A stretch of DNA of 64,000 nt from a virus (Duplodnaviria; Heunggongvirae; Uroviricota; Caudoviricetes), in the IMG/VR virus record IMGVR_UViG_2713896899_000007, positions 1-64,000 of that record; one strand, given 5' to 3'. Made by a program: the position numbers and the translations under genes. The notes beneath the pieces are model-generated. The model did no database searches, was not told the DNA's origin, and saw only the letters and a program-made list of their open reading frames with translations. Numbering within the stretch: the stretch's first letter is position 1; every line of letters begins with the position of its first letter. This document shows, in pieces, positions 38,279 through 64,000 of the stretch.

Positions 38279-38608
38279 TTACGCGAATACTTCAAGAAAC
38301 TCCTGAACGTCCCAATGCTGGACAAGGTGAAGATAGACCTTAGAAATCACGTCATTCTCGCTATCGCATGTGAAGTAGTACTTCTGGCTGCGGTTGTATG
38401 TGTCCACACAAAATTCGCTCATATCCATAAAGTCAGCATCTTCTCCCATGTCGCAAATCATCAAAGCAGGTGCGTCATCACGAGTCATCAGCTCAAGCAC
38501 CCACCGCGAATTGATCAGAGTGGAAGACCAACCTTCCAGCTCACAGAACTGGTCAAACTCTTTTTGAGTCAATTTCTTAATTTGGTTGATGTCGATATGT
38601 GCAAACAT
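38279..38608 (-). CDS. hypothetical protein
   Basis: start moved to second Met (TAAGGAT RBS); the track ATG lies inside the conserved motif B leader. Confidence 0.4.
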   Translation of the reverse strand: MFAHIDINQIKKLTQKEFDQFCELEGWSSTLINSRWVLELMTRDDAPALMICDMGEDADFMDMSEFCVDTYNRSQKYYFTCDSENDVISKVYLHLVQHWDVQEFLEVFA

Positions 38609-38959
38609 AAAGCAATCCTTAAACAACATGTTTTCTTATTGGTGTTATTATCGCAATAACGCACAGGCGAAAAAGGATTTTATTCCGGTGAATGTGGTTT
38701 TGGCAGTGAGTTTTCAGGTTCAGTACCGAGTACACTTTTTACATTATTCTGATTTAGTGGCCGAAGATGGCTGGTGGGCAGAATAATCCTCTCCCCGAAA
38801 ACCTACTGAAATCGATTGTGACCCGCTGGCTGTCTGGCACAATTACGCTGTAGCTGGGCATTCAGAGGGAATCCAGCGGTAAGTTCGCCTGCACGTGAGC
38901 GCCTCTCTTCTTACCGCACATTACAGGTGGGTAGCCGCAACTCTCCCTCACGCTATACC

Positions 38960-39105
38960 GGTACGCCACCGTTCCTGAACCGGCATCGAGCCTTTTCCCG
39001 AAATCCACACAGGCAACTCTACCGTTTCCCTGAAAATCCCCAGCCGTTCCCCGAAGGCAACCCAGCCGTTTCTGTAGCGGGATGCAGCCTTTCCCTGTAT
39101 GGACC
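38960..39105. repeat. iteron-like direct repeats (cluster 2), about six copies at ~22-bp spacing
   Basis: CCGTTTCCCTGAAAATCCCCAG / CCGTTCCCCGAAGGCAACCCAG / CCGTTTCTGTAGCGGGATGCAG and flanking variants. Confidence 0.55.
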
Positions 39106-40176
39106 GAAGGCTGACCGTAGGGGTGTTACGGGGGATAAAATCAGGAGTTGAATAAATACGAAAAAGGAGGCGACACCCCTACTTCCCTCTCCACTTATAC
39201 ATACCAGGCTTCTTCGCTATACATGTTGTGTTTTCTTCGTGTTTTATCTGTCTCAACCTCTCTATAGGCGTTAATGCTCACTCCTACCAGAACGTTCTAT
39301 ACGGCGACTATTTCTGTTGGTGGATTAGGTGTGTTGTTTTCTCTGTCGGTGTATGTGGTTTCGTTCGTTTTGCGGTGGTTCTTCTATGGGGTGTTCTCGT
39401 CGTTTTGGTGATTGTTCTTCTCCGTATATGGAGTAATGGCAGGTGGGCGATTGCTTTCGTTATTGTGTTTGAGTTGTTTGTCTGGAGTGTGTGAAAGGCT
39501 TTTGTAGTTATTCGTGTATTGGGTAATGGCGTTTCCCGTGATTGTTATGTTTCGTGTCTTTTGGGATTGAGAGAAACCTTGCGGTTACAGGCTTCGTTGG
39601 GGTTTCAGTGATTCTGGTGTTTCTTCGCTGTTTGGGGAATGGCGTGTCGTGGGTATCGCGCGTGTGAATGTTTTCGGATTGCCTGTGAAAGTTAGGTTGG
39701 TTATCCGGTAGCCTGGGAAGAAGAGGTGGGTCTTTTCGGTAGCCTGCCATAAAGAGGTTGGTTGTTTTTGGGAATGGCATGTGTGTTATTTAGTTGTTTT
39801 GTTATGCCTGAAAATAAGTTGTTTATATGGTTGTGTAACGCAACGGGAGCGATTTTGAGCGTGTGTTTTTGTTGGTAGTGTGTTGAGTCGTCTGTGGTGA
39901 AAATTGGACGCTGTGGAGCTGTCTGCTGCGTAGGATTACGGGTATAAGAAGTGATGTGTGAAAACGTCAATTTTTTAGACCAAATCGGGAGAAAGCGTTG
40001 ATGTTTCGTTGATCTGTTATTTAGTTGTTTTCTTATTGGTATAAACAACTGTAACCTATTGATATTTAAGGATGTGATTGCAGGCATGGAAGGGGAGTAG
40101 TGGCGATCAACGGATTCTTATAGAAAAGAATCAAATTGTGACCGCCATTATCAACGGTTTGAATATGTTTGCAGAT

Positions 40177-40476
40177 TTACCAGTTCCAGCACTCAAGCCC
40201 TTCAACGACCGGCGCACCACAATCAAAATGTACAGAGTCAAAGCCTACATCAAGTACTTTCTGAATGTTAGCAATCGCGCCTTCGGATATACCATATCGA
40301 CGCAAGTCGTCTTTCCAGACATCATCCTGTAACCCGGCGTGGACAATACAACCGCCATCAATTTGTGAAACCCAATCCAGCTCATTGCTTGCGATCATGA
40401 ATCGGCGAGCATCTTCCTCTGATGTATGAGATGAACTGATCAATGCCACCTGGTAGGCTTGGGTAATGTTCAACAT
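40177..40476 (-). CDS. hypothetical protein
   Basis: track start is GTG; moved to next ATG, which has a GGAG RBS; motif B upstream. Confidence 0.35.
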   Translation of the reverse strand: MLNITQAYQVALISSSHTSEEDARRFMIASNELDWVSQIDGGCIVHAGLQDDVWKDDLRRYGISEGAIANIQKVLDVGFDSVHFDCGAPVVEGLECWNW

Positions 40477-40539
40477 TTCAACCACTCCAAAACAAGTTGT
40501 TTTCTTATGTGGCTTATTATCTCTAACAACAAAAGGCAG

Positions 40540-40690
40540 AAAACAAATTGTTTTAGGTACTGTGTAAATCAGAAGGGATTGTGTCTATATGAAAATGCCC
40601 GGCGTGTTGCCGGGCATTGCGAAGAGAGGTTGTTTAATTACTTAACCTGGTGGCCAGGTTTAGCACCGGCATCCGGCTGCAGGATGGGAG
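40540..40690. repeat. direct repeat copy 1: diverged duplicate of metG 3' end (last ~12 codons plus stop), terminator hairpin and motif B; att-like
   Basis: about 85 percent identical to 41398-41550 over ~150 bp. Confidence 0.6.
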
Positions 40691-41367
40691 GTTACGTTCG
40701 CGCTATGTTGATATTCTGATTGACGCCATTTGTGCCAAATCATCTCCTTATAGGATTCATATTGCGTTCGGTACTCTGGCTTCAAGTCAGATATGCCTTT
40801 ATTCACTACCGCTCGTACGTTTACTAATAATTCGTGCTCAATGCCTTTACTCTCTAAATATTCTACAACACCAGCATCGGGGCCAATTGCCCTGCCGTTA
40901 AAGACCATTTCCAGCATAAGCTCTGTTTCAGCAAAATAGATAGGTGAGGAACCAGGTGCACACAGCTTAATAGCAGTAAGATTGTCCAACAGGTCGGCCA
41001 ATTTAATCATTCGCGTCTGCATATCCAACGTCTTTTGCAATTCGCGAACATTAATAATGAATCTCGCAAGACTATCGCCGTCGTCTGGTTTGGCAACGTT
41101 TGCCAGCGCCAGTACCATCTCAGCTACACGATTCCCGAAATACTCGCGTACCATTTCGATAGTGATATGGGTATCTTCAATAACACCATGTAATAATGCA
41201 GCAGCCTGCATTTCGACAGTGCCTCCGTGCCAAGCAACAATCTCACGCACAGAAACTGGGTGTGTAACGTAGTCTTCCCCCGTATATCTACGCTTCTTAC
41301 CTACACCACCATACACTCCAACGGCAAACATATGAGCTTTATCAACAATCGACATAATTTGCTCCAT
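40660..41367 (-). CDS. SpoT/Rel-type HD-domain hydrolase paralogue, HG variant of the HD motif, chimeric C-terminus
   Basis: HPVSVREIV...ALLHGVIEDT...MIKLADLLDN; 3' end reads into the metG-derived repeat in another frame. Confidence 0.55.
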   Translation of the reverse strand: MEQIMSIVDKAHMFAVGVYGGVGKKRRYTGEDYVTHPVSVREIVAWHGGTVEMQAAALLHGVIEDTHITIEMVREYFGNRVAEMVLALANVAKPDDGDSLARFIINVRELQKTLDMQTRMIKLADLLDNLTAIKLCAPGSSPIYFAETELMLEMVFNGRAIGPDAGVVEYLESKGIEHELLVNVRAVVNKGISDLKPEYRTQYESYKEMIWHKWRQSEYQHSANVTSHPAAGCRC

Positions 41368-41397
41368 TATTTTGTTAATACTGTTACTCTAACTGAT

Positions 41398-41550
41398 AAT
41401 AGAACGCAGAAAACAAATTGTTTTAGGGGCTGAGTAAATCAGAAGGGATTGCGTCTATATGAAAATGCCCAGCAATACGCTGGGCATTGTGAAGAATGGT
41501 TGTTTAGTTACTTAACTTGGTGGCCTGGTTTAGCACCAGCATCCGGGCTT
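41398..41550. repeat. direct repeat copy 2, overlapping the true 3' end of metG
   Basis: homologous to 40540-40690. Confidence 0.6.
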
Positions 41551-43541
41551 AACAGGAAGATATCTTTCCCGCCGGGGCCAGCAGCCATCACCATGCCTTC
41601 GGAGATACCGAAGCGCATTTTACGCGGAGCCAGGTTAGCCACCATAATTGTGTGACGACCAATCAGTGCCTGTGGGTCTGGATAAGCAGAACGGATGCCT
41701 GAGAAGACATTACGCTTTTCACCACCGAGATCCAGTGTCAGGCGCAACAGTTTGTCAGAACCTTCAACAAACTCCGCGTTTTCAATCAGCGCCACACGCA
41801 GGTCAACTTTGGCGAAGTCGTCAAAGGTGATGGTTTCCTGAATCGGGTCGTCAGCCAGTGGGCCAGTAACTGGCGCGGCAGTAGCTTTCACTTCTTCTTT
41901 GGATGCTTCCACCAGTGCTTCCACCTGTTTCATATCGATACGGTTATACAGTGCCTTGAACGGATTCACTTTATGGCCCAGCAGCGGTTGCTGGATACCA
42001 TCCCAGGTCAGTTCTGTATTCAGGAATGCTTCTGCACGTTCAGTCAGTTTCGGCAGTACCGGTTTCAGATACGTCATCAGCACGCGGAACAGGTTAATGC
42101 CCATAGAGCAAATCGCCTGCAGATCTGCATCGCGACCTTCCTGCTTCGCCACCACCCACGGAGCCTGTTCATCGACATAGCGGTTAGCCAGGTCAGCCAA
42201 TGCCATGATTTCACGGATAGCTTTACCAAATTCGCGGCTTTCCCATGCTTCGCCAATCACTTCAGCGGCATCAGTAAAGGTTTTGTACAGTTGCGGGTCA
42301 GCCAGTTCGCTTGCCAGCACGCCGTCAAAACGCTTGTTGATAAAGCCTGCATTACGGGAGGCCAGGTTAACCACTTTGTTAACAATATCGGCATTCACTC
42401 GCTGAACGAAATCCTCCAGGTTGAGATCGATATCATCAATGCGCGAAGAGAGTTTCGCAGTGTAGTAGTAACGCAGGCTGTCAGCGTCAAAATGATTCAG
42501 CCAGGTGCTGGCTTTAATAAAGGTGCCGCGAGACTTGGACATCTTCGCACCGTTCACCGTCACATAGCCATGAACAAACAGGTTGGTCGGCTTGCGGAAG
42601 TTGCTGCCTTCCAGCATGGCAGGCCAGAACAGACTGTGGAAGTAAACGATATCTTTACCGATGAAGTGGTACAGCTCGGCGGTGGAGTCTTTCTTCCAGT
42701 ATTCATCGAAGCTGGTGGTATCGCCGCGCTTGTCGCACAGATTCTTGAAGGAACCCATGTAGCCAATCGGTGCGTCCAGCCAGACGTAGAAATATTTACC
42801 CGGCGCGTTCGGAATTTCAAAACCGAAGTAAGGTGCGTCGCGGGAGATATCCCACTGTTGCAGACCAGATTCAAACCACTCCTGCATTTTGTTTGCCACC
42901 TGCTCCTGCAACGCACCGCTGCGGGTCCATGCCTGCAACATTTCGCTGAAAGAGGGCAGATCAAAGAAGAAGTGTTCAGAATCACGCATTACCGGGGTAG
43001 CACCAGAAACCACCGATTTCGGCTCGATCAGTTCAGTCGGGCTGTAGGTCGCGCCACAAACTTCACAGTTATCGCCGTATTGATCTGGCGCTTTACATTT
43101 CGGGCAGGTGCCTTTCACAAAACGATCCGGCAGGAACATGCCTTTTTCCGGGTCGTACAACTGAGAGATAGTGCGGTTTTTAATAAAACCGTTCTCTTTC
43201 AGGCGAGTATAAATAAGCTCAGACAGCTGGCGGTTCTCTTCGCTGTGCGTCGAGTGATAGTTGTCATAGCTGATGTTAAAGCCTGCGAAATCAGTCTGGT
43301 GTTCCTGACTCATTTCGCCAATCATCTGCTCCGGTGTGATACCAAGTTGCTGTGCTTTCAGCATGATCGGCGTACCGTGGGCATCGTCGGCACAGATGAA
43401 ATTAACCTCGTGGCCGCGCATTCGCTGGTAACGAACCCAGACATCAGCCTGGATGTGCTCCAGCATATGGCCGAGGTGGATTGAGCCGTTAGCGTACGGC
43501 AGCGCGCACGTCACCAGAATTTTCTTCGCGACTTGGGTCAT
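41508..43541 (-). CDS. metG: methionyl-tRNA synthetase (host gene)
   Basis: 677-aa product with HIGH-type motif ([11 protein letters not shown]) and KMSKS; near-identical to enterobacterial MetG from MTQVAKK; the longer track ORF is an upstream in-frame extension. Confidence 0.95.
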
Positions 43542-43698
43542 AGTAGGCATTACTTCTTTGTAGTGAAAAGGGGCTTGATAGTAACAAAATGGCCTTATGT
43601 CTGCCATGTGATAACAGCATTTCTCATAAATGATTAAATGTCGTAGCTGGAGTACACTACAAGGCGACAATTGCGCAAATTAAAATAAAGGAGACGGG

Positions 43699-44799
43699 AT
43701 GAGCGAGTCCAAATCGCCGGATGCCCTGAGAGCAATGGTAGCCGGTACGCTGGCTAATTTTCAGCACCCAACCCTGAAACACAACCTGACTACGCTTAAA
43801 GCGTTACACCATGTTGCGTTGATGGATGACACACTGCATGTCGAACTAATCATGCCTTTCGTGTGGAATAAGCCTTTTGAAGACCTGAAAGAGCAATGTA
43901 GTGGTGATCTGCTCCGTATCACTGGCGCAAAGGCTATTGACTGGAAGCTGTCGTACAACATTGCCACGCTTAAGCGCGTCAAAAACCAACCAGGCATTAA
44001 TGGTGTTAAGAATATTATCGCCGTAAGCTCAGGCAAGGGCGGTGTAGGCAAATCGTCCACAGCAGTAAACTTGGCACTGGCGTTGGCTGCTGAAGGTGCG
44101 AAAGTTGGTATTTTGGATGCCGATATCTACGGGCCATCAATACCAACCATGCTGGGCGCGGAAAACCAACGTCCAACCTCACCGGACGGTACTCACATGG
44201 CACCTATCATGTCTCATGGCCTGGCAACCAATTCAATTGGCTATCTGGTCACCGACGACAATGCAATGGTGTGGCGTGGACCGATGGCCAGCAAGGCGCT
44301 GATGCAGATGTTGCAGGAAACACTGTGGCCTGATCTGGACTATCTCGTTCTCGATATGCCGCCGGGCACTGGTGATATTCAGTTGACGCTGGCGCAGAAC
44401 ATTCCTGTAACTGGTGCGGTTGTGGTAACTACGCCGCAAGACATCGCGCTGATCGATGCGAAGAAAGGCATTGTGATGTTCGAAAAAGTCGAAGTGCCAG
44501 TACTGGGTATCGTTGAAAACATGAGTGTGCATATTTGCAGTAACTGCGGTCATCACGAGCCAATTTTTGGCACCGGTGGCGCACAGAAACTGGCCGAGAA
44601 ATACAACACGCAGTTGTTAGGCCAAATGCCACTTCATATCTCTCTTCGTGAAGATCTGGATAACGGAACACCAACCGTTATTAGTCGTCCAGATAGTGAA
44701 TTTACGGCTATTTATCGTGACCTCGCAGATCGCGTTGCTGCCCAAATGTATTGGCAAGGTGAAGTAATACCTGGCGAAATCGCATTCCGCGCAGTGTGA
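43699..44799 (+). CDS. apbC: Fe-S cluster carrier ATPase ApbC/Mrp (host gene)
   Basis: deviant Walker A SGKGGVGKS and CxxC motif; divergent from metG as in E. coli. Confidence 0.95.
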   Translation: MSESKSPDALRAMVAGTLANFQHPTLKHNLTTLKALHHVALMDDTLHVELIMPFVWNKPFEDLKEQCSGDLLRITGAKAIDWKLSYNIATLKRVKNQPGINGVKNIIAVSSGKGGVGKSSTAVNLALALAAEGAKVGILDADIYGPSIPTMLGAENQRPTSPDGTHMAPIMSHGLATNSIGYLVTDDNAMVWRGPMASKALMQMLQETLWPDLDYLVLDMPPGTGDIQLTLAQNIPVTGAVVVTTPQDIALIDAKKGIVMFEKVEVPVLGIVENMSVHICSNCGHHEPIFGTGGAQKLAEKYNTQLLGQMPLHISLREDLDNGTPTVISRPDSEFTAIYRDLADRVAAQMYWQGEVIPGEIAFRAV

Positions 44800-45226: not shown

Positions 45227-45398
45227 AGCGTTTTGCCCTCAATACTGTTCATTTATACAGTATACATGAAAGAAGCTCACTCAGTGCAACTGATCGGTAC
45301 ATAGCACCAGACAAAGGAACATTATTTTCTCGAACAAGAAAAGGTAGAAAACAAATTGTTTAAGGCCACAGCTAGTGGCCTTAATGGAGAAGGGATGC

Positions 45399-48736: not shown

Positions 48737-49188
48737 TGTTTATTTCCTTTGCGAAGATCAGCGGCGAAGGCTACTGCGTGATCATGATGTTCAAGTGTGT
48801 ATGCACACTCAGCAAACATCTCCACGCCCTGCGCACGTACTTCAGCCAGAAAAGCATCGGTGGCTGGAGTCTCCGTTAATTCGCTAACCCAATTATCTCC
48901 GTGTTCCTCGGCACACATCGCATCGAATGCTCGCTCAGATTCTTTCAGGGCTGCATTCTCCGCCGCTAATGCGTCTCTCTGCGCCCGCAACTTCTCAATT
49001 TCGGCAGCCATGTAGTAACCAACCATAGCGAAAGTGGCGAAAGGGTAGTCCGAATCATCAGGAGATACGGAGGCCATTAGCAGACCATCGTGCATGTTCT
49101 GGCTTCCATCAGTGATAGATACCGCATAAGAATCGCTGGTTTCCCGCTTATACAATACGACGACCGGGTTCTTGATTTTCTCTCTCAT
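48733..49188 (-). CDS. hypothetical protein
   Basis: 151-aa ORF. Confidence 0.4.
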   Translation of the reverse strand: MREKIKNPVVVLYKRETSDSYAVSITDGSQNMHDGLLMASVSPDDSDYPFATFAMVGYYMAAEIEKLRAQRDALAAENAALKESERAFDAMCAEEHGDNWVSELTETPATDAFLAEVRAQGVEMFAECAYTLEHHDHAVAFAADLRKGNKQ

Positions 49189-49742
49189 TACGATGCCTCT
49201 AACTTGTCTAACTCTTTCAGCCCTTCACGTACCGCGTTCACAATGCGTTCCAGATACTGGTATTTCGGGTTTGGTACCGTTGGCCAGTCGGCATACCACG
49301 GATCATCACCAAAGAGATTCAGTAGTTTGTTACCGACGCCGAAACAGCAGCAGCTTTCTTTTACGTCATCGGCGTTTTCCGCCTCGTCCCACATTTCGCG
49401 AGCCAGTACGGCGTCTATTTCTCTCTCTCTTCGTAACTTTATGATTTCTGACTTCACGAAAAGCAGATTTGCATCGTTGTCATCGTCGACCGTGCTTCGC
49501 AGTTGAGGGTCGAAATAGCCGATTAGATACTCGTTGCTGACCCGCTTAATGAACGTCTGCACATCATCACCGCCCATAGCAAACCAAGCCGCAGTCCACG
49601 CTTTTCCGTAGCAGGTGATGGTGATTCTTCCCTTACCAGGTTCGTAGTTTTCAATCATCACTCGAACCGGATCGAGGCGTTCCAGATCCGTCAGCACAAA
49701 GGAAAGAACATCTATTTTTTCGATCTTCATGCAGCCTCCCAC
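49188..49742 (-). CDS. hypothetical protein
   Basis: 184-aa ORF. Confidence 0.4.
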   Translation of the reverse strand: MGGCMKIEKIDVLSFVLTDLERLDPVRVMIENYEPGKGRITITCYGKAWTAAWFAMGGDDVQTFIKRVSNEYLIGYFDPQLRSTVDDDNDANLLFVKSEIIKLRREREIDAVLAREMWDEAENADDVKESCCCFGVGNKLLNLFGDDPWYADWPTVPNPKYQYLERIVNAVREGLKELDKLEAS

Positions 49743-50368
49743 GCGCTCCAGATCAGCGATTTGTGTTTTTCATAACGTTTGATGTGTACCGGTTTCAGAA
49801 GCGCAATACCTTCAGTGACTTTCGCCATTGCGCTTAATAACAACGGGTGTTCTATACCTATCCTCTCCATGTACTCGACAACATCAGCGTTGGCACCAAT
49901 CTCCTTCCCGTTAAAAAGTACGTCCAGCATCAGCTCTTTCTCTGCAAGGTAGATAGCTGAAAACTCAGGATCGCGACTCACGATAGAAGAGGTATTGTCG
50001 AGCAGGTCAGCCAGCTTGATCATGCGCGTCTGCATGTCGAGATTTTGCTCCAGCTCCCGGACATTGATGATGAAACGCTGTATTCGATTGCCGTCTTCTG
50101 GCCTTGCGATGTTGGTCAGAGCCTGAACCATTTCAGCTACGCGCTCACCGAAGTGATCACGAACCATCTCTATGGTTACATTGGTGTCTTCGACCACATC
50201 ATGCAGAAGCGCCGCGATTTGCATCTCCACGGTTCCGTCATGCAATGCAACAATCTCTCGGACAGCAACCGGGTGGTTGATGTAGTCTTCGCCGGTATAT
50301 TTTCTTTTCTGACCAACGCCACCATGAGCGCCAGCGGCGAACATATGTGCTTCGGAAATACTAGACAT
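49727..50368 (-). CDS. SpoT/Rel-type HD-domain hydrolase (small alarmone hydrolase-like), intact HD motif
   Basis: HPVAVREIV...ALLHDVVEDT...MIKLADLLDN. Confidence 0.65.
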   Translation of the reverse strand: MSSISEAHMFAAGAHGGVGQKRKYTGEDYINHPVAVREIVALHDGTVEMQIAALLHDVVEDTNVTIEMVRDHFGERVAEMVQALTNIARPEDGNRIQRFIINVRELEQNLDMQTRMIKLADLLDNTSSIVSRDPEFSAIYLAEKELMLDVLFNGKEIGANADVVEYMERIGIEHPLLLSAMAKVTEGIALLKPVHIKRYEKHKSLIWSAWEAA

Positions 50369-50487
50369 TCTTAACTCCGTTGTTTTCTAGTTGTGGTTAT
50401 TTTCACAAATAAGAAAAGGTAGAAAACAATTTATTTAAGGCCACAACTTATGGCCTTTATTTATTCATGCAGAAGAATTTGTAGCGT

Positions 50488-54027: not shown

Positions 54028-54324
54028 GTGTTTTCCTTAATGCTTAAACAAGTTGTTTTCTTATTGGCTTTATTGTGATGTGGCATATAAGGGGAGCAAG
54101 CTAAACGTAAAGGTGCAAACTCTCTATTTTGGTCAACGAAACACAAGGGCCATTTGGCCCTTGTCATTAACACTTTGCTTTACGGACTAGCGGATAGGCG
54201 AAGTAGATCGCCAAACCAATGAGGACGCCATCAGAAATGACAGACATCATCTTTCCCGTAAAATCCACCAACACCGCCATCACCAGAAGAGCAATGACGG
54301 TCACAAGCCGGAATCTCTCAAGCA

Positions 54325-60067: not shown

Positions 60068-60712
60068 CTAATGAACGGTTACTCGGCCACAGAACCGGTT
60101 TTCTATCTTTTCTACAGCGTTATCTAGCATTCTCATCACTGATCTGGCTCTTGCTTCAACCGTGCGATATCGGTTGGAAACGACGAAGGTTTGCAGATCT
60201 CCCCTTTGCGGATGCAGGTGAATTTTTGTCAGTTCCCCGCACATCAACGCATCAATACGAGCGACATACAGACGGTCTAATGATGCTCGTTGTGATCGCA
60301 AGTAATCTCGCTCTGAGAGAGCGACTCCCGGGCGTAAGCCAGCAATGGCGTTAAAGTTTGAAATAGCAGTTTTGTGGCAAAACTTTTCGATATCGAGGGC
60401 TAACTCAATACACCGATCTTCATTTGTATGGCCGACCAAATCCAACGTGTAGGCCATAACATCAGCAGGTGTGCGATCGATAACAAAGCCTTCAACACCA
60501 CGCGTAAGTAGCTCTATATGCTTTGCTATTTCCATTTGAATCTGAAGCCGCTCATATAGAGGCATAGACTCACCTACTCGAACACCGAGGCGGCTCATCA
60601 AACTTCCGACACCAGCATCCACGTAAGGGATTCCGTAATGTTTGTCGATATATTTAGCCAGGGTTGTTTTCCCACTGCCCTGAGCACCAGTGATCCCAAT
60701 CCGGTAATCCAT
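60068..60712 (-). CDS. P-loop nucleotide kinase (probable dNMP kinase)
   Basis: Walker A GAQGSGKTT at N-terminus; placement beside DHFR and ThyA-like genes. Confidence 0.6.
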   Translation of the reverse strand: MDYRIGITGAQGSGKTTLAKYIDKHYGIPYVDAGVGSLMSRLGVRVGESMPLYERLQIQMEIAKHIELLTRGVEGFVIDRTPADVMAYTLDLVGHTNEDRCIELALDIEKFCHKTAISNFNAIAGLRPGVALSERDYLRSQRASLDRLYVARIDALMCGELTKIHLHPQRGDLQTFVVSNRYRTVEARARSVMRMLDNAVEKIENRFCGRVTVH

Positions 60713-61188
60713 TACGACCTTCTGTATACGATCTGCGAAAAGCCAGGCTCTTCCTCGCTGGCTCGTTGGGTATAAGCTGTTTCAACAGGCACAAAGCCTA
60801 AGTTACGCATCATGCTTGCCGGGAAGAATGCATCGGCGTTTGGTACATCAACGCCGATGTGGGAGAGCCAAATCTCTTCAACATGCGGCATGAATAGCGA
60901 GTAAATTTGTTCCCCGCCAATCACCCACACAGGCTCTGGTAATCGCAACACATCATCCACACCAGCAGGGTAGAATCCATTTGGTACAAAGCCATGAGAG
61001 CGCGTCAAAACGAGGTTATGACGCTCTGGAAGAGGGCGTTTGAGACTTTCCATCGTTTTACGCCCCATAACGACAGTGGCGTTTTTGGTGAGTCTCTTAA
61101 ATAGCTTCAGATCGGTAGAACAACGCCAGGGCAGTTCGTTCGCTATGCCGATCTCATAGTTACGGCCAACAGCAGCTATCATCTTCAT
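60712..61188 (-). CDS. dihydrofolate reductase
   Basis: MIAAVGRNYEIG...LPW...VMGRKT..S...PLP.R.N.VL...VIGG pattern of FolA. Confidence 0.8.
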   Translation of the reverse strand: MKMIAAVGRNYEIGIANELPWRCSTDLKLFKRLTKNATVVMGRKTMESLKRPLPERHNLVLTRSHGFVPNGFYPAGVDDVLRLPEPVWVIGGEQIYSLFMPHVEEIWLSHIGVDVPNADAFFPASMMRNLGFVPVETAYTQRASEEEPGFSQIVYRRS

Positions 61189-61646
61189 TTGCTCACCTCA
61201 TAGATGACCGGTCTATGATGAGAGTCAGCTAAAGCGGCACGGAGTCGAGGATCGTGCACCAGCGCAGCGATAAGCAGATCGCCTTTATGCTCCGCTAATG
61301 TGCGCTTAATATGCTTCTCATAACTGGTGCCATTCGGTACAAGATGAAGCCAGTCGTAATCAACGCCAAAATCTTTCAGCCATCGTTTAGTGGGCGCTTC
61401 AAGAGTTTCAGAGCGGCTACTGATAAGCACCACTTCAGCCCCTGAGCGAGCAAAACCACGCAACATACGGCTGGTGGGGAAAATGAGTTCATCACCGGCA
61501 ATGAGCTGGCCTGCATCCGCGTCAGATACAGATTTACGATGGCTGGTATTTGCCAGCACACCTTCAATTTCGCATAAGACATACATACCTCTTGCCATAT
61601 CACACCGCCACTGGAACCTTGATCCACGGTAGAGGGTCATAGCCAA
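61185..61646 (-). CDS. HAD-like fold protein with E-x-E in place of the D-x-D nucleophile motif (tentative)
   Basis: YVLCEIEGVL, VVLISSRSE, GDLLIAALVHD; start may be internal. Confidence 0.35.
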   Translation of the reverse strand: MAMTLYRGSRFQWRCDMARGMYVLCEIEGVLANTSHRKSVSDADAGQLIAGDELIFPTSRMLRGFARSGAEVVLISSRSETLEAPTKRWLKDFGVDYDWLHLVPNGTSYEKHIKRTLAEHKGDLLIAALVHDPRLRAALADSHHRPVIYEVSK

Positions 61647-62730
61647 GAATCAGAATATCGTCCCATTTGAAATCATCCAGCTCAGACCATTCATGAGGGA
61701 AAATAACGACCGGATCTGAATGCTCTGGAGCCTGTCGTTTCATTAGCTCACACACACTTTCCATGTGGTTATTGTATAAATGCACGTCAAAGCCAAAATG
61801 CACAAATGCACCGGCCATGTGACCCGTAATCTTCGCGAGAAAATGAGTGAGAATGCCATAGCCAGCAATATTGAATGGCATACCAACAAAAGTGTCTACG
61901 CTACGCTGTACGAGGCAGGAGTTGAGGATGCGTTTGGGGATTCCAAGTTCATCCAGTTCAGTTTCAGTAACACTGCCGTCCATCTCCAGATCGTATAGCA
62001 TCTTGGTGTAGATAGACTCGTAACCGAGGCGACTGTGTTGAAGACCAATGTCTGTTGCCATCGTTAAACGAGTTTCAAAATCAAGCTCACGACTCCACAA
62101 AGAGAAGGCAAAGTGGCAAGGTGGCAGTTTCATATCCTCAAGCTCGCCTACGTTCCATGCGTTAAGCATGATGCGACGATCGGTAGGGTTCGTGCGCAGT
62201 GTATCGACAATACGCTGTAGCTGATCGATTTCACGGGACAGCACTACGCGATCTTCACTGATACCCAGGTATCCCTCGACTTTGTACCCGCGTTCACGGA
62301 AAGTATCGATCTTGCTCAGATATTCACTATGGCTCACGATGCGGGTATCTTCCCATCGACGCCACTGCTTACCGTAAACCGGCCCCAAATCGCCATTCTC
62401 ATCGGCCCATGCATCCCAAATTTTAACGCCGTTATCCTTGAGAAATTGGATGTTGCCCGTGCCTTTCAGATACCACTCAAGTTCGACAAGTAGTGGCTTA
62501 AGATTTACCGCCTTTCCAGAAATAAGCGGCACAGTCCCACCAGTAAGCATGTAGTAAGAGGGAACGTAGCAGGTGCTTAAAGTACCAGTGCCTGTGCGAT
62601 CATCAGCCTGCACGCCGCTTTTAAGCACCGTCTCAATAACTTTTGCATACGATGCGTTTGTTACCTGACCGTTCGTATGCTCACGATTCAAAAGGAGTGA
62701 CACAAAAACCTCACAAAGATAAGTAACCAC
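61600..62730 (-). CDS. thymidylate synthase family enzyme (ThyA-like) with two large insertions
   Basis: DRTGTGT, WADENGDLGPVYGKQWRRW, PPCHFAFSLW (catalytic Cys), MPFNIAGYG (Asn, uracil-type), DVHLYNNH. Confidence 0.8.
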   Translation of the reverse strand: MVTYLCEVFVSLLLNREHTNGQVTNASYAKVIETVLKSGVQADDRTGTGTLSTCYVPSYYMLTGGTVPLISGKAVNLKPLLVELEWYLKGTGNIQFLKDNGVKIWDAWADENGDLGPVYGKQWRRWEDTRIVSHSEYLSKIDTFRERGYKVEGYLGISEDRVVLSREIDQLQRIVDTLRTNPTDRRIMLNAWNVGELEDMKLPPCHFAFSLWSRELDFETRLTMATDIGLQHSRLGYESIYTKMLYDLEMDGSVTETELDELGIPKRILNSCLVQRSVDTFVGMPFNIAGYGILTHFLAKITGHMAGAFVHFGFDVHLYNNHMESVCELMKRQAPEHSDPVVIFPHEWSELDDFKWDDILILGYDPLPWIKVPVAV

Positions 62731-62874
62731 TTATTCATTGCGTGAGTTTACATTCATTGAGAGAACAAGACCAGACAGATAAAAAAATGGTGGCCATAGG
62801 CCACCAAAAACGAATAGTTGTTTCAGAAATTTAACGCGCCAACGCAATATACACAGATAGATAACTACCTACAA

Positions 62875-63744
62875 TTATTTTTTGATCATTCCGTACATTG
62901 CTGAGGCTTTAGCTTGCTCAACAAAGGAGGATAAATCGACATCACTATAGGTTGGAGACTTCAGAATCTTTCCATCGGAAATTCGAAAACCGATCATCTT
63001 ATCGGTGCCATCAGCATGGCGAAATCCCAGGTCAGAAGAGTCGTATTTGCAGTTGGCCACAGCATGGCGACGCTCTTCGGCATCTGCAGGCCATAATTTT
63101 GTCATGTTGGACCGATGAATTTCGCCAACCAGCTCGACGACATTGATACCGAGGAAATCAGCCAGTCGATAGGTCATCATGCACGCCACATAGATTTTGT
63201 TCATTACACGGCGCAGTTCCTGAATCAGCTCAGAATCCTTAACAGTCTTGTTCTCAAGTTTATCTGCCAGCTCTTCGAGCATACATGACGCCTCACGAGC
63301 TTCCTGAAATGGCATTGCCATATCATCGAAAACAGTGTTACCAGGCACAAAAATTGTCTGCATAAAGCGATCAATGCTCTGTTCCTGCGTGTAATAGGTC
63401 ATGCCGGTAGAAATACCACCTTTGATGGCGACCATCGTACCAACACCAACGTATAAAAAGTCGGCCATTGCATCCAGCAGTTGCTCAATATCCCCATTCA
63501 TTGCGGCTGGAATACCTTCCACTACAGCTTCTTCATGAATCAGGCTTGCACGGAGACGAAGCAGCTCTGGTGTCGGCATAACGCGTCTCGGATGCTGGAA
63601 GAGTTCATGAAACTGATCGACCATCTTGTAAATACTTTCAGTGGCTACACCATGGCCTTCATGCAACTCATATGGTTCTGGCTTAAATCCAATGAGTCGA
63701 TCGGTGGCAAGTTTCAGGTGGTCAGTCAGTTTGGTAAAGTTCAT
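62875..63744 (-). CDS. hypothetical protein, possible all-alpha NTP pyrophosphohydrolase (MazG-like), low confidence
   Basis: helical protein with EE-containing segments; placement in nucleotide-metabolism cluster. Confidence 0.3.
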   Translation of the reverse strand: MNFTKLTDHLKLATDRLIGFKPEPYELHEGHGVATESIYKMVDQFHELFQHPRRVMPTPELLRLRASLIHEEAVVEGIPAAMNGDIEQLLDAMADFLYVGVGTMVAIKGGISTGMTYYTQEQSIDRFMQTIFVPGNTVFDDMAMPFQEAREASCMLEELADKLENKTVKDSELIQELRRVMNKIYVACMMTYRLADFLGINVVELVGEIHRSNMTKLWPADAEERRHAVANCKYDSSDLGFRHADGTDKMIGFRISDGKILKSPTYSDVDLSSFVEQAKASAMYGMIKK

Positions 63745-64000
63745 GCTAGTTTTGTTCCTTCTTAATTCTTGTGATCCATTGTGGCCCAGCGTTGCCAGGC
63801 CACATAATGCTTTGTATCGGTTTACAGGTCTGCAAACTGGCTTAGAGAAGCCTTATCCACAGTAGAATCGATCTGACCTACCAGATATGTGCTTTGCTCT
63901 GCCTCTTGTGGTGCAATTTGCAGTGTGTCGGTTAACAACCACTTGTTCATCCAGACCAGCGGATCGGTGGTAACCTCTGGAAATAAAGCCTTCAGGCCAA

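Follow-up and report, generated by a model that had tools for sequence, protein, structure and literature searches.

The window analysed here, a 64,000-nucleotide stretch of viral DNA, carries two genes of RSH-type HD hydrolases, both on the minus strand. HD1 (49727..50368) is an ORF of 213 aa which encodes a putative PaSpo-type small alarmone hydrolase (SAH), the orthologue of SSU5_099 of Salmonella phage SSU5. HD2 (40660..41355; 231 aa) is a degenerate SAH paralogue in which the HD motif is changed to HG. HD2 is preceded by metG, a gene for a methionine--tRNA ligase (41508..43541, minus strand) with apbC as its divergent neighbour (43699..44799, plus strand). It is followed by a DUF5983 gene (40177..40398, minus strand), which in plasmids lacking HD2 is located directly 3' of metG.

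The window is a 100% match to plasmid p009_B of E. coli strain 9 (NZ_CP048306.1), which is circular and has 110,182 bp. The p009_B record contains tail, tape-measure, capsid, portal and terminase genes together with ParB and RepB; further genes are those for its own DNA polymerase III alpha, ligase, RecA, nrdAB, thyA, dfrA51 and four tRNAs. An HD1 orthologue occupies the same position in phage SSU5 and in S. Typhi pHCM2. Because phage genes are combined with ParB and RepB and because of the position of the HD1 orthologue in SSU5 and pHCM2, the element is an SSU5-type phage-plasmid and not an integrated prophage. The window thus is part of an SSU5/pHCM2-like circular 110-kb phage-plasmid. The first-pass annotation had placed HD2 at the att junction of a prophage integrated at metG. 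This is ruled out, as the replicon is a circular plasmid of 110 kb which encodes RepB and ParB. Phage-plasmid genes lie on either side of metG and apbC, a chromosomal flank is absent, and the direct repeat at metG encloses only an 870-bp cassette with HD2, not a whole prophage. Both metG and apbC are cargo of the phage-plasmid. A phage-plasmid survey preprint mentioned neither metG nor the HD gene, and Rfam over the whole window returned nothing at the gathering threshold.

The 213-aa minus-strand ORF of HD1 was confirmed, including the series HP...LLHDVVEDT...KLADLLDN by which it had originally been recognised; in the ORF translation the motifs read YINHPVAV, AALLHDVVEDT and KLADLLDN. HD1 matched Pfam HD_4 (PF13328) with 1.3e-18, and its sequence matches in the PDB were SpoT, Rel, Mesh1 and SAHs. 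HD1 and HD2 alike matched the N-terminal hydrolase part of TIGR00691 spoT_relA and phrog_990, 'metal-dependent phosphohydrolase'. What had been missed initially is the kinship of HD1 with the experimentally characterised and syntenic PaSpo of SSU5. HD1 and SSU5_099 share 87% identity (186/213, no gaps) at an equal length of 213 aa, and SSU5_099 is the only HD_4 gene detected in SSU5. The SSU5 SAH has been classed as PaSpo (Jimmy et al., 2020; PMC7229694). The synteny of HD1 is kept in SSU5, pHCM2 and an Enterobacter plasmid, in which the locus is composed of a DUF4942 methyltransferase, 2-3 small genes, the HD gene and an overlapping gene of ~180 aa. In the window this conserved 180-aa gene (49188..49730, minus strand) overlaps the HD1 stop by 4 nt, as it does in SSU5, pHCM2 and Enterobacter; it had no Pfam or PADLOC match. 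The HD1 leader (50369..50445, minus strand) is made up of the terminator-like hairpin of the upstream gene, a palindromic motif (50422-50436) and the RBS. It can be aligned with the leaders of SSU5_099, of HD2 and of P0007, a homologue from another phage-plasmid lineage. The dN/dS of HD1 was 0.06-0.18, the lower value being that between two plasmids. SSU5 PaSpo resembles HD1 in length and genomic position, is likewise overlapped by the next gene downstream and has the same residue at every motif position; it differs in that it is encoded in a sequenced SSU5 virion genome whereas HD1 resides in an E. coli phage-plasmid. From identity and synteny we infer that HD1 is a member of the PaSpo subfamily. 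Judged by sequence it is the orthologue of a characterised phage enzyme and as such already known. HD1 confirms that the PaSpo SAH belongs to the conserved backbone of SSU5/pHCM2-type phage-plasmids, a group often met in clinical Enterobacteriaceae; otherwise it adds little.

The six motifs of RSH hydrolases consist of an Arg, a His, a His-Asp, a Glu-Asp, an Asp (with Lys/Arg) and an Asn, and the Mn2+ ligands in SAH crystal structures are the His, His-Asp and Asp of the HD motifs (PMC9293644). In the HD1 protein all six motifs are present. Residues R22, H32, H56-D57, E60-D61, D121 and N125 correspond to Mesh1 R24, H35, H61-D62, E65-D66, D122 and N126 (numbering of the human Mesh1 sequence, verified against 3nr1). 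The catalytic residues were thus checked by alignment with Mesh1, and HD1 keeps all His/Asp metal ligands. D121 is followed by Leu instead of Lys/Arg, which is also the case in SSU5 PaSpo, an active enzyme. An AF2 model of HD1 had a pLDDT of 97.1. The best Foldseek matches were Mesh1 (3nr1: TM 0.69/0.82, rmsd 2.4 A), PaSAH, RelH and the hydrolase domains of Rel and SpoT. For HD1 and HD2 alike, a Pfam HD_4 match was accompanied by best Foldseek matches which were all RSH proteins, mainly hydrolase domains or stand-alone SAHs. Both proteins (213 and 231 aa) are single-domain: only HD_4/HD was above the Pfam threshold and the whole chain aligned to the 178-aa Mesh1. Human and Drosophila MESH1 and the bacterial SAHs (PaSAH, 6yvc; RelH, 7qod/7qoe) share with HD1 the all-helical HD fold, the Mn2+ ligands and the catalytic Glu-Asp pair. 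Yet, identity to HD1 and HD2 in the structural alignments is only 21-28%, and HD1 and HD2 have ~35 extra C-terminal residues and, like SSU5 PaSpo, a Leu instead of Lys/Arg after the Asp of HD5.

What does HD1 do? SSU5 PaSpo neutralises all five toxSAS tested, i.e. CapRel, PhRel2, FaRel2, PhRel and FaRel (PMC7229694), and later became a tool for the expression of toxSAS (PMC11559606; PMC9712102). It is stated to remove the tRNA modification installed by FaRel2 (PMC11559606). Reversal of the pyrophosphorylation of tRNA 3'-CCA was demonstrated directly in vitro for MESH1 and ATfaRel; for PaSpo the evidence in the literature consulted is genetic. Since the motif residues are kept, the fold is that of Mesh1 and the SAHs, and identity to the toxSAS-neutralising SSU5 PaSpo amounts to 87%, HD1 is a stand-alone and probably active small alarmone hydrolase, in line with the original proposal. 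By analogy with toxSAS neutralisation by the SSU5 orthologue its activity would be that of a Mn2+-dependent 3'-pyrophosphohydrolase. We propose that HD1 is the backbone PaSpo-type SAH of the phage-plasmid and most likely strips 3'-pyrophosphate groups via the Mn2+-dependent HD active site. Candidate substrates are (p)ppGpp, (pp)pApp and tRNA 3'-CCA ends which were pyrophosphorylated by toxSAS such as CapRel or FaRel2. Replication of the element would then be shielded from alarmone- or tRNA-based abortive defences. For the SSU5 orthologue this counter-defence step has been demonstrated in toxin-neutralisation assays; for HD1 it is presumed on the basis of the 87% identity. The role envisaged at first, removal of the products of toxin or defence systems, agrees with the published toxSAS neutralisation by SSU5 PaSpo.

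The main role of HD1 could instead be a reset of host stringent signalling by (p)ppGpp hydrolysis in favour of plasmid and phage replication. Among proteins of known structure, those closest in sequence hydrolyse (p)ppGpp, alarmone accumulation upon phage infection has been discussed (Jimmy et al., 2020; PMC7229694), and the element is rich in genes for nucleotide and DNA metabolism which would gain from a non-stringent host. However, the sole experimental data on the orthologue concern toxSAS neutralisation, including that of tRNA-modifying toxSAS which make no alarmone. As the principal function, stringent reset is a possibility of some weight, yet clearly not the one we favour. As a second role of HD1 it is compatible with the countering of toxSAS, i.e. 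the two are not mutually exclusive. ATfaRel, a PbcSpo SAH and type IV antitoxin of the Cellulomonas marina FaRel, and the SAH of phage PVP-SE1 are stand-alone RSH hydrolases like HD1. Both neutralise toxSAS by degrading the toxin product (PMC7229694). They belong to a different SAH subfamily than HD1 and HD2; furthermore, ATfaRel adjoins its toxSAS whereas the plasmid of HD1 and HD2 has no annotated synthetase. A toxSAS-SAH toxin-antitoxin pair was considered and rejected: a synthetase is not annotated anywhere on the plasmid, and the neighbours had no match to a defence family. PADLOC was run on the two HD proteins and on five neighbours and matched none of them, and Pfam identified only DUF5983 and DUF4942 among the neighbours.

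HD2 was confirmed as a minus-strand ORF at 40660-41367 with the previously noticed LLHGVIEDT; its motif reads AALLHGVIEDT and it matched Pfam HD_4 with 2e-15. The ORF reaches up to an ATG at 41367. A second ATG, at 41355, has GGAG 6 nt upstream and coincides in the alignment with the start codons of HD1 and P0007; therefore 41355 is the likely start and 41367 is less likely. HD1 and HD2 are true paralogues as annotated at first, but their identity is 63% (132/210, no gaps; BLASTP E=1e-100) and not ~70%. SSU5 PaSpo and HD2 share 68% identity over 210 aa; HD2 differs by the missing Asp of the HD motif (in one clade also the His), by a tail of 16 residues and by its locus 3' of metG. The tail results from a lost stop codon. 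P0007 ends with ...WRQSEY-TAA, and this TAA aligns to CAA in HD2. Read-through adds 16 codons and a stop (40660..40710, minus strand) with a pLDDT of 66-70, and the residues past the C-terminus of the family are QHSANVTSHPAAGCRC. The first 11 codons are the gene's own 3' flank, which became coding once the stop was lost. Only the terminal 5 codons and the new stop (GCC GGA TGC CGG TGC TAA) are within the repeat that contains the metG 3' end, in a different frame. Accordingly, the earlier notion of a metG-derived tail in another frame was right as to the frame; its extent of ~19 residues shrinks to 5 of the 16 codons. In a second clade of HD2 alleles a 4-nt deletion and a new TAA generate another tail, ...QPDAGA.

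The metG-derived repeat reported at HD2 was found as a direct repeat of 180 nt (40497-40676 and 41367-41546; 81% identity) which contains the metG 3' end and flanks the 870-bp HD2 cassette. Copy R1 (41367..41546, minus strand), the divergent one, comprises the last ~39 nt of metG, a terminator-like hairpin, a palindromic motif (41409-41425) and the HD2 leader. Copy R2 (40497..40676, minus strand) is associated with a fragment of the metG 3' end, the hairpin, motifs at 40539-40555 and 40488-40504, and the DUF5983 leader. R2, which is 3' of HD2, is nearly identical to the region downstream of metG in plasmids without HD2; R1, between metG and HD2, has diverged. In most related plasmids metG is directly followed by the DUF5983 gene. 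At all places examined (8/8) HD2 was directly 3' of metG, where the contig extends so far, with DUF5983 next.

The distribution of HD2 is narrow. It was present in 2 of 5,426 complete E. coli genomes and on ~170 contigs of a large collection, there as 17 protein variants which form one cluster at 90% identity and which are restricted to E. coli. Scans of viral and metagenome loci added three further HD2 loci, and a search with the HD2 protein did not find a broader degenerate lineage. In both complete plasmids that bear HD2, HD1 is present too, at full length and with its HD motif intact. The nearest relatives of HD2 with an intact HD motif, P0007 and P0135, have 215 aa and 73-74% identity to HD2 and occupy the HD1-type position in another lineage of E. 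coli phage-plasmids. The HD2 leader, from the palindromic motif to the ATG, is closest to the P0007 leader and is homologous to the HD1 leader as well. This likeness indicates that HD2 originated at an HD1-type locus and brought its leader along. We suggest that HD2 derives from the HD1-type gene of a different, P0007-like phage-plasmid lineage (74% identity) and that gene and leader were transferred as a unit to a position immediately 3' of the plasmid metG, leaving the 180-nt duplication behind. The repeat pair with its 81% identity would be accounted for either by a donor which already carried a metG fragment, R1 and HD2, or by a circular cassette which integrated at the shared motif. The locus also exemplifies the mobility of accessory genes in phage-plasmids, with gene and leader travelling as one cassette between sites which have a palindromic intergenic motif in common.

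Among the 120 homologues listed, the Asp of the HD motif is absent only in the HD2 cluster; four N-terminally replaced variants had no match at this position. All HD2 alleles have Gly in its place, and in one clade the His is also exchanged for Asn, i.e. the motif is NG. Of the six SAH motifs, HD2 thus departs from the consensus in HD3 (HG here, NG in the second clade) and keeps the rest. Within the family 58 columns are at least 85% conserved in 47 members. HD2 has lost 14/58 of these, P0007 4/58 and HD1 0/58, and no other aligned member more than 8. The HD2 changes A14V, H15Y, Q20K, K23R, D57G, R95S and K144T affect residues which are 100% invariant elsewhere. When substitutions were polarised with the SSU5 group as outgroup, 29 were on the HD2 branch vs 12 on the P0007 branch (P=0.006). 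Enrichment at conserved columns was not significant (12/29 for HD2 vs 2/12 for P0007, Fisher P=0.17). The HD2 lineage has accordingly lost the HD Asp, in one clade the His too, further otherwise invariant residues and the stop codon, and its rate of evolution was about double that of the sister lineage.

The first-pass annotation had interpreted the Asp-to-Gly change as loss of a metal ligand. This is borne out: HG is the actual reading, the Asp is a Mn2+ ligand in SAH structures, and a D54A mutant of ATfaRel, changed at a residue described as homologous to a RelSeq active-site residue, has lost hydrolysis and toxin neutralisation. Because the HD Asp, in one clade the His, and otherwise invariant residues are lost and because ATfaRel D54A is inactive, HD2 very probably is no longer a Mn2+-dependent hydrolase. 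In view of its residues we would not list HD2 among the SAH enzymes, although its predicted fold and its descent are those of an SAH.

Could HD2 be an enzyme with altered chemistry or substrate, e.g. another phosphorylated nucleotide or an RNA end, operating via H32, D121 and E60-D61? R22, H32, E60-D61, K118, D121 and N125 are retained, and RSH hydrolases are catalytically versatile; Mesh1 also dephosphorylates NADPH, and the tRNA 3'-pyrophosphate is a substrate of SAHs. Several HD2 changes (H15Y, Q20K, K23R, R95S) are grouped in motifs near the substrate, where they could shift the specificity. Nevertheless, in SAH structures Mn2+ is directly coordinated by the HD Asp (PMC9293644), ATfaRel is inactivated by D54A, a second ligand is missing from the NG clade with no compensation seen, and no other family member among the 120 homologues listed tolerates either change. 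An altered enzyme is therefore quite improbable.

The loss of a Mn2+ ligand, and of the His in one clade, and of 14 conserved positions would also be expected if HD2 were a decaying pseudogene, i.e. a recent duplicate that was inactivated and is functionless, as the first-pass annotation had it. The accelerated branch, the narrow distribution and a stop-loss tail which varies between clades by a 4-nt deletion point in the same direction. However, neither a frameshift nor a premature stop was seen in the 645-nt core of HD2, whether in the 5 DNA haplotypes or in any full-length protein variant of the cluster with its ~170 contigs, although at a dS of ~0.07 this alone is a weak argument. The loss of the stop is the only lesion seen, and it lengthens the protein. 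Furthermore, a comparison of the HG and NG clades, both without the Asp, yielded Sd=9 and Nd=6, i.e. an omega of 0.18 from a sample of only 15 substitutions. This is significantly below 1 (binomial P=0.0017 with the NG86 site ratio, 0.009-0.04 under the more conservative ratios tried). Between the same two plasmids metG had an omega of 0.00 and HD1 one of 0.06; the DUF4942 gene had 0.18, and three hypothetical genes ranged from 0.23 to 0.50. HD2 is within the range of its neighbours. Judged by these ratios HD2 is as constrained as ordinary accessory genes. The RBS and the leader are conserved too. Neither of two hallmarks of a pseudogene, a disrupted frame and neutral evolution with dN/dS ~1, was found in HD2, in what is a small sample.

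The differences within clades were all non-synonymous (4/4: L96I, M147I, V77I, T62P). They are in keeping with decay and would fit a weak or recently relaxed constraint. Over the whole HD2 tree 10 non-synonymous and 9 synonymous changes were counted (P=0.013, again a small sample). As to the narrow distribution, the lineage could simply be young. On balance we consider it unlikely that HD2 is a pseudogene, and the label of a decaying copy does not go well with these data. A scan for sigma-70 and terminator consensus sequences around HD2 was no better than with shuffled sequence. The AF2 model of HD2 had a pLDDT of 94.7 with the same helices as HD1 and the same fold matches; only the read-through tail was of low confidence. 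This high confidence stems from the family alignment and is no proof of actual folding. Because of the open frame, the intact leader and RBS, the confidently predicted SAH fold and a dN/dS of ~0.18, HD2 is most likely expressed and retained for a non-catalytic or altered function. We judge it likely that the element harbors one active counter-defence SAH and a constrained, probably non-catalytic paralogue.

Tentatively, and with considerable reservation, one may go further and regard HD2 as the first stand-alone RSH 'pseudo-hydrolase', catalytically dead and kept by the phage-plasmid for a non-catalytic action. It might serve as a sponge which traps pyrophosphorylated nucleotides or tRNA 3' ends, or as a decoy or inhibitor of a host factor that targets PaSpo-type SAHs. 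SAHs dimerise via their N-terminal helices (PMC9293644), and HD2 might form heterodimers with HD1 in this manner and tune HD1 activity in plasmid carriage vs lytic growth. A literature search for a stand-alone pseudo-SAH turned up only a paper on bifunctional Rel; in the literature searched HD2 is a new variant, a degenerate stand-alone SAH paralogue not described before, whereas HD1 is already known. HD2 may be viewed as a natural experiment at the population level in which a counter-defence enzyme was deprived of metal ligands and is apparently still under constraint. Should a non-catalytic role be true, the phage repertoire against alarmone and tRNA-pyrophosphate signalling would be wider than hitherto known, and HD2 would be a stand-alone analogue of the pseudo-hydrolase domain of RelA. 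This degenerate domain has the RSH fold without catalytic residues, yet it is retained and has a structural or regulatory role in a multidomain protein. The likeness to HD2 is one of analogy, a degenerate but retained RSH hydrolase fold, and the difference is that HD2 stands alone. RelA (5iqr) was among the fold matches.

The gene for the 213-aa small alarmone hydrolase HD1 (49727-50368, minus strand) and its degenerate paralogue HD2 (40660-41355, minus strand) share upstream sequences. A motif search of the window identified a palindrome, GAAAACAAnTTGTTT, at about 18 sites between 26070 and 54789, with 28 strand matches compared to about one expected by chance. Examples are located at 40488-40504, 40539-40555, 41409-41425, 45347-45363, 50422-50436 and 54044-54060. 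One site each was present upstream of HD1 and HD2, and two upstream of the DUF5983 gene (40177-40398, minus strand). A leader of about 75 nt, running from the motif to the ATG, was common to HD1, HD2, the DUF5983 gene, P0007, which is one of the intact relatives closest to HD2, and SSU5_099, the HD1 orthologue of Salmonella phage SSU5. The motif and leader probably constitute a promoter or operator common to accessory-gene cassettes, and probably also a substrate on which such cassettes are shuffled.

At its stop, the HD1-type gene overlaps by 4 nt with a gene for a 180-aa protein (49188-49730). This arrangement was conserved without exception in SSU5 and pHCM2 as well as in the plasmids from E. 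coli and Enterobacter, suggesting that the 180-aa gene is translationally coupled to the hydrolase. Equivalents were present at the comparison loci L014, L015 and L016, and dN/dS for the 180-aa gene was 0.23. The protein had no match in Pfam or PADLOC. In other phage-plasmids the HD1 locus itself was frequently altered (homologues P0010-P0014). P0011, listed for 139 contigs, is truncated to 139 aa. Other variants, 186-206 aa long, retained the C-terminal part of the protein; a motif search in these found neither the HP nor the HD motif, and one of them carries the annotation AAA ATPase.

On the phage-plasmid, its own copies of metG and apbC form a divergent pair (41508-44799). E. coli genomes contained more than 3,100 chromosomal matches to this region, most of them with 80-95% identity. 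Genes for tRNA-Ser, tRNA-Thr, tRNA-Tyr and tRNA-Asn are also located on the plasmid, outside the window. Thus, with metG/apbC and four tRNAs, the probably tRNA-repairing hydrolase is accompanied by translation-related cargo.

A conserved stretch of about 1.5 kb (38604-40176) has no annotated gene in the plasmid or its relatives. Its strand skew is extreme, especially at 39400-40200, with a GC skew of up to +0.47 and an AT skew of -0.46, and it contains several short direct repeats. A match in Rfam was not found. The stretch may correspond to a non-coding RNA or may be origin-like.

In the comparison with the matching E. coli plasmid p009_B (NZ_CP048306.1) both tested segments matched at 100%. 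The coordinate offset shifted by 10 bp between window positions 41700 and 49000; therefore, a small indel separates the two sequences somewhere in this interval. At about 60700-64000 dfrA51, encoding a trimethoprim-resistant DHFR, is annotated together with thymidylate synthase and nrdB; dfrA51 on phage-plasmids is already described (PMC12217456). Finally, a repeat of about 300 nt occurs in four copies (583-1644; 64-71% identity) inside a phage tail protein gene and probably represents repeated domains of this protein.
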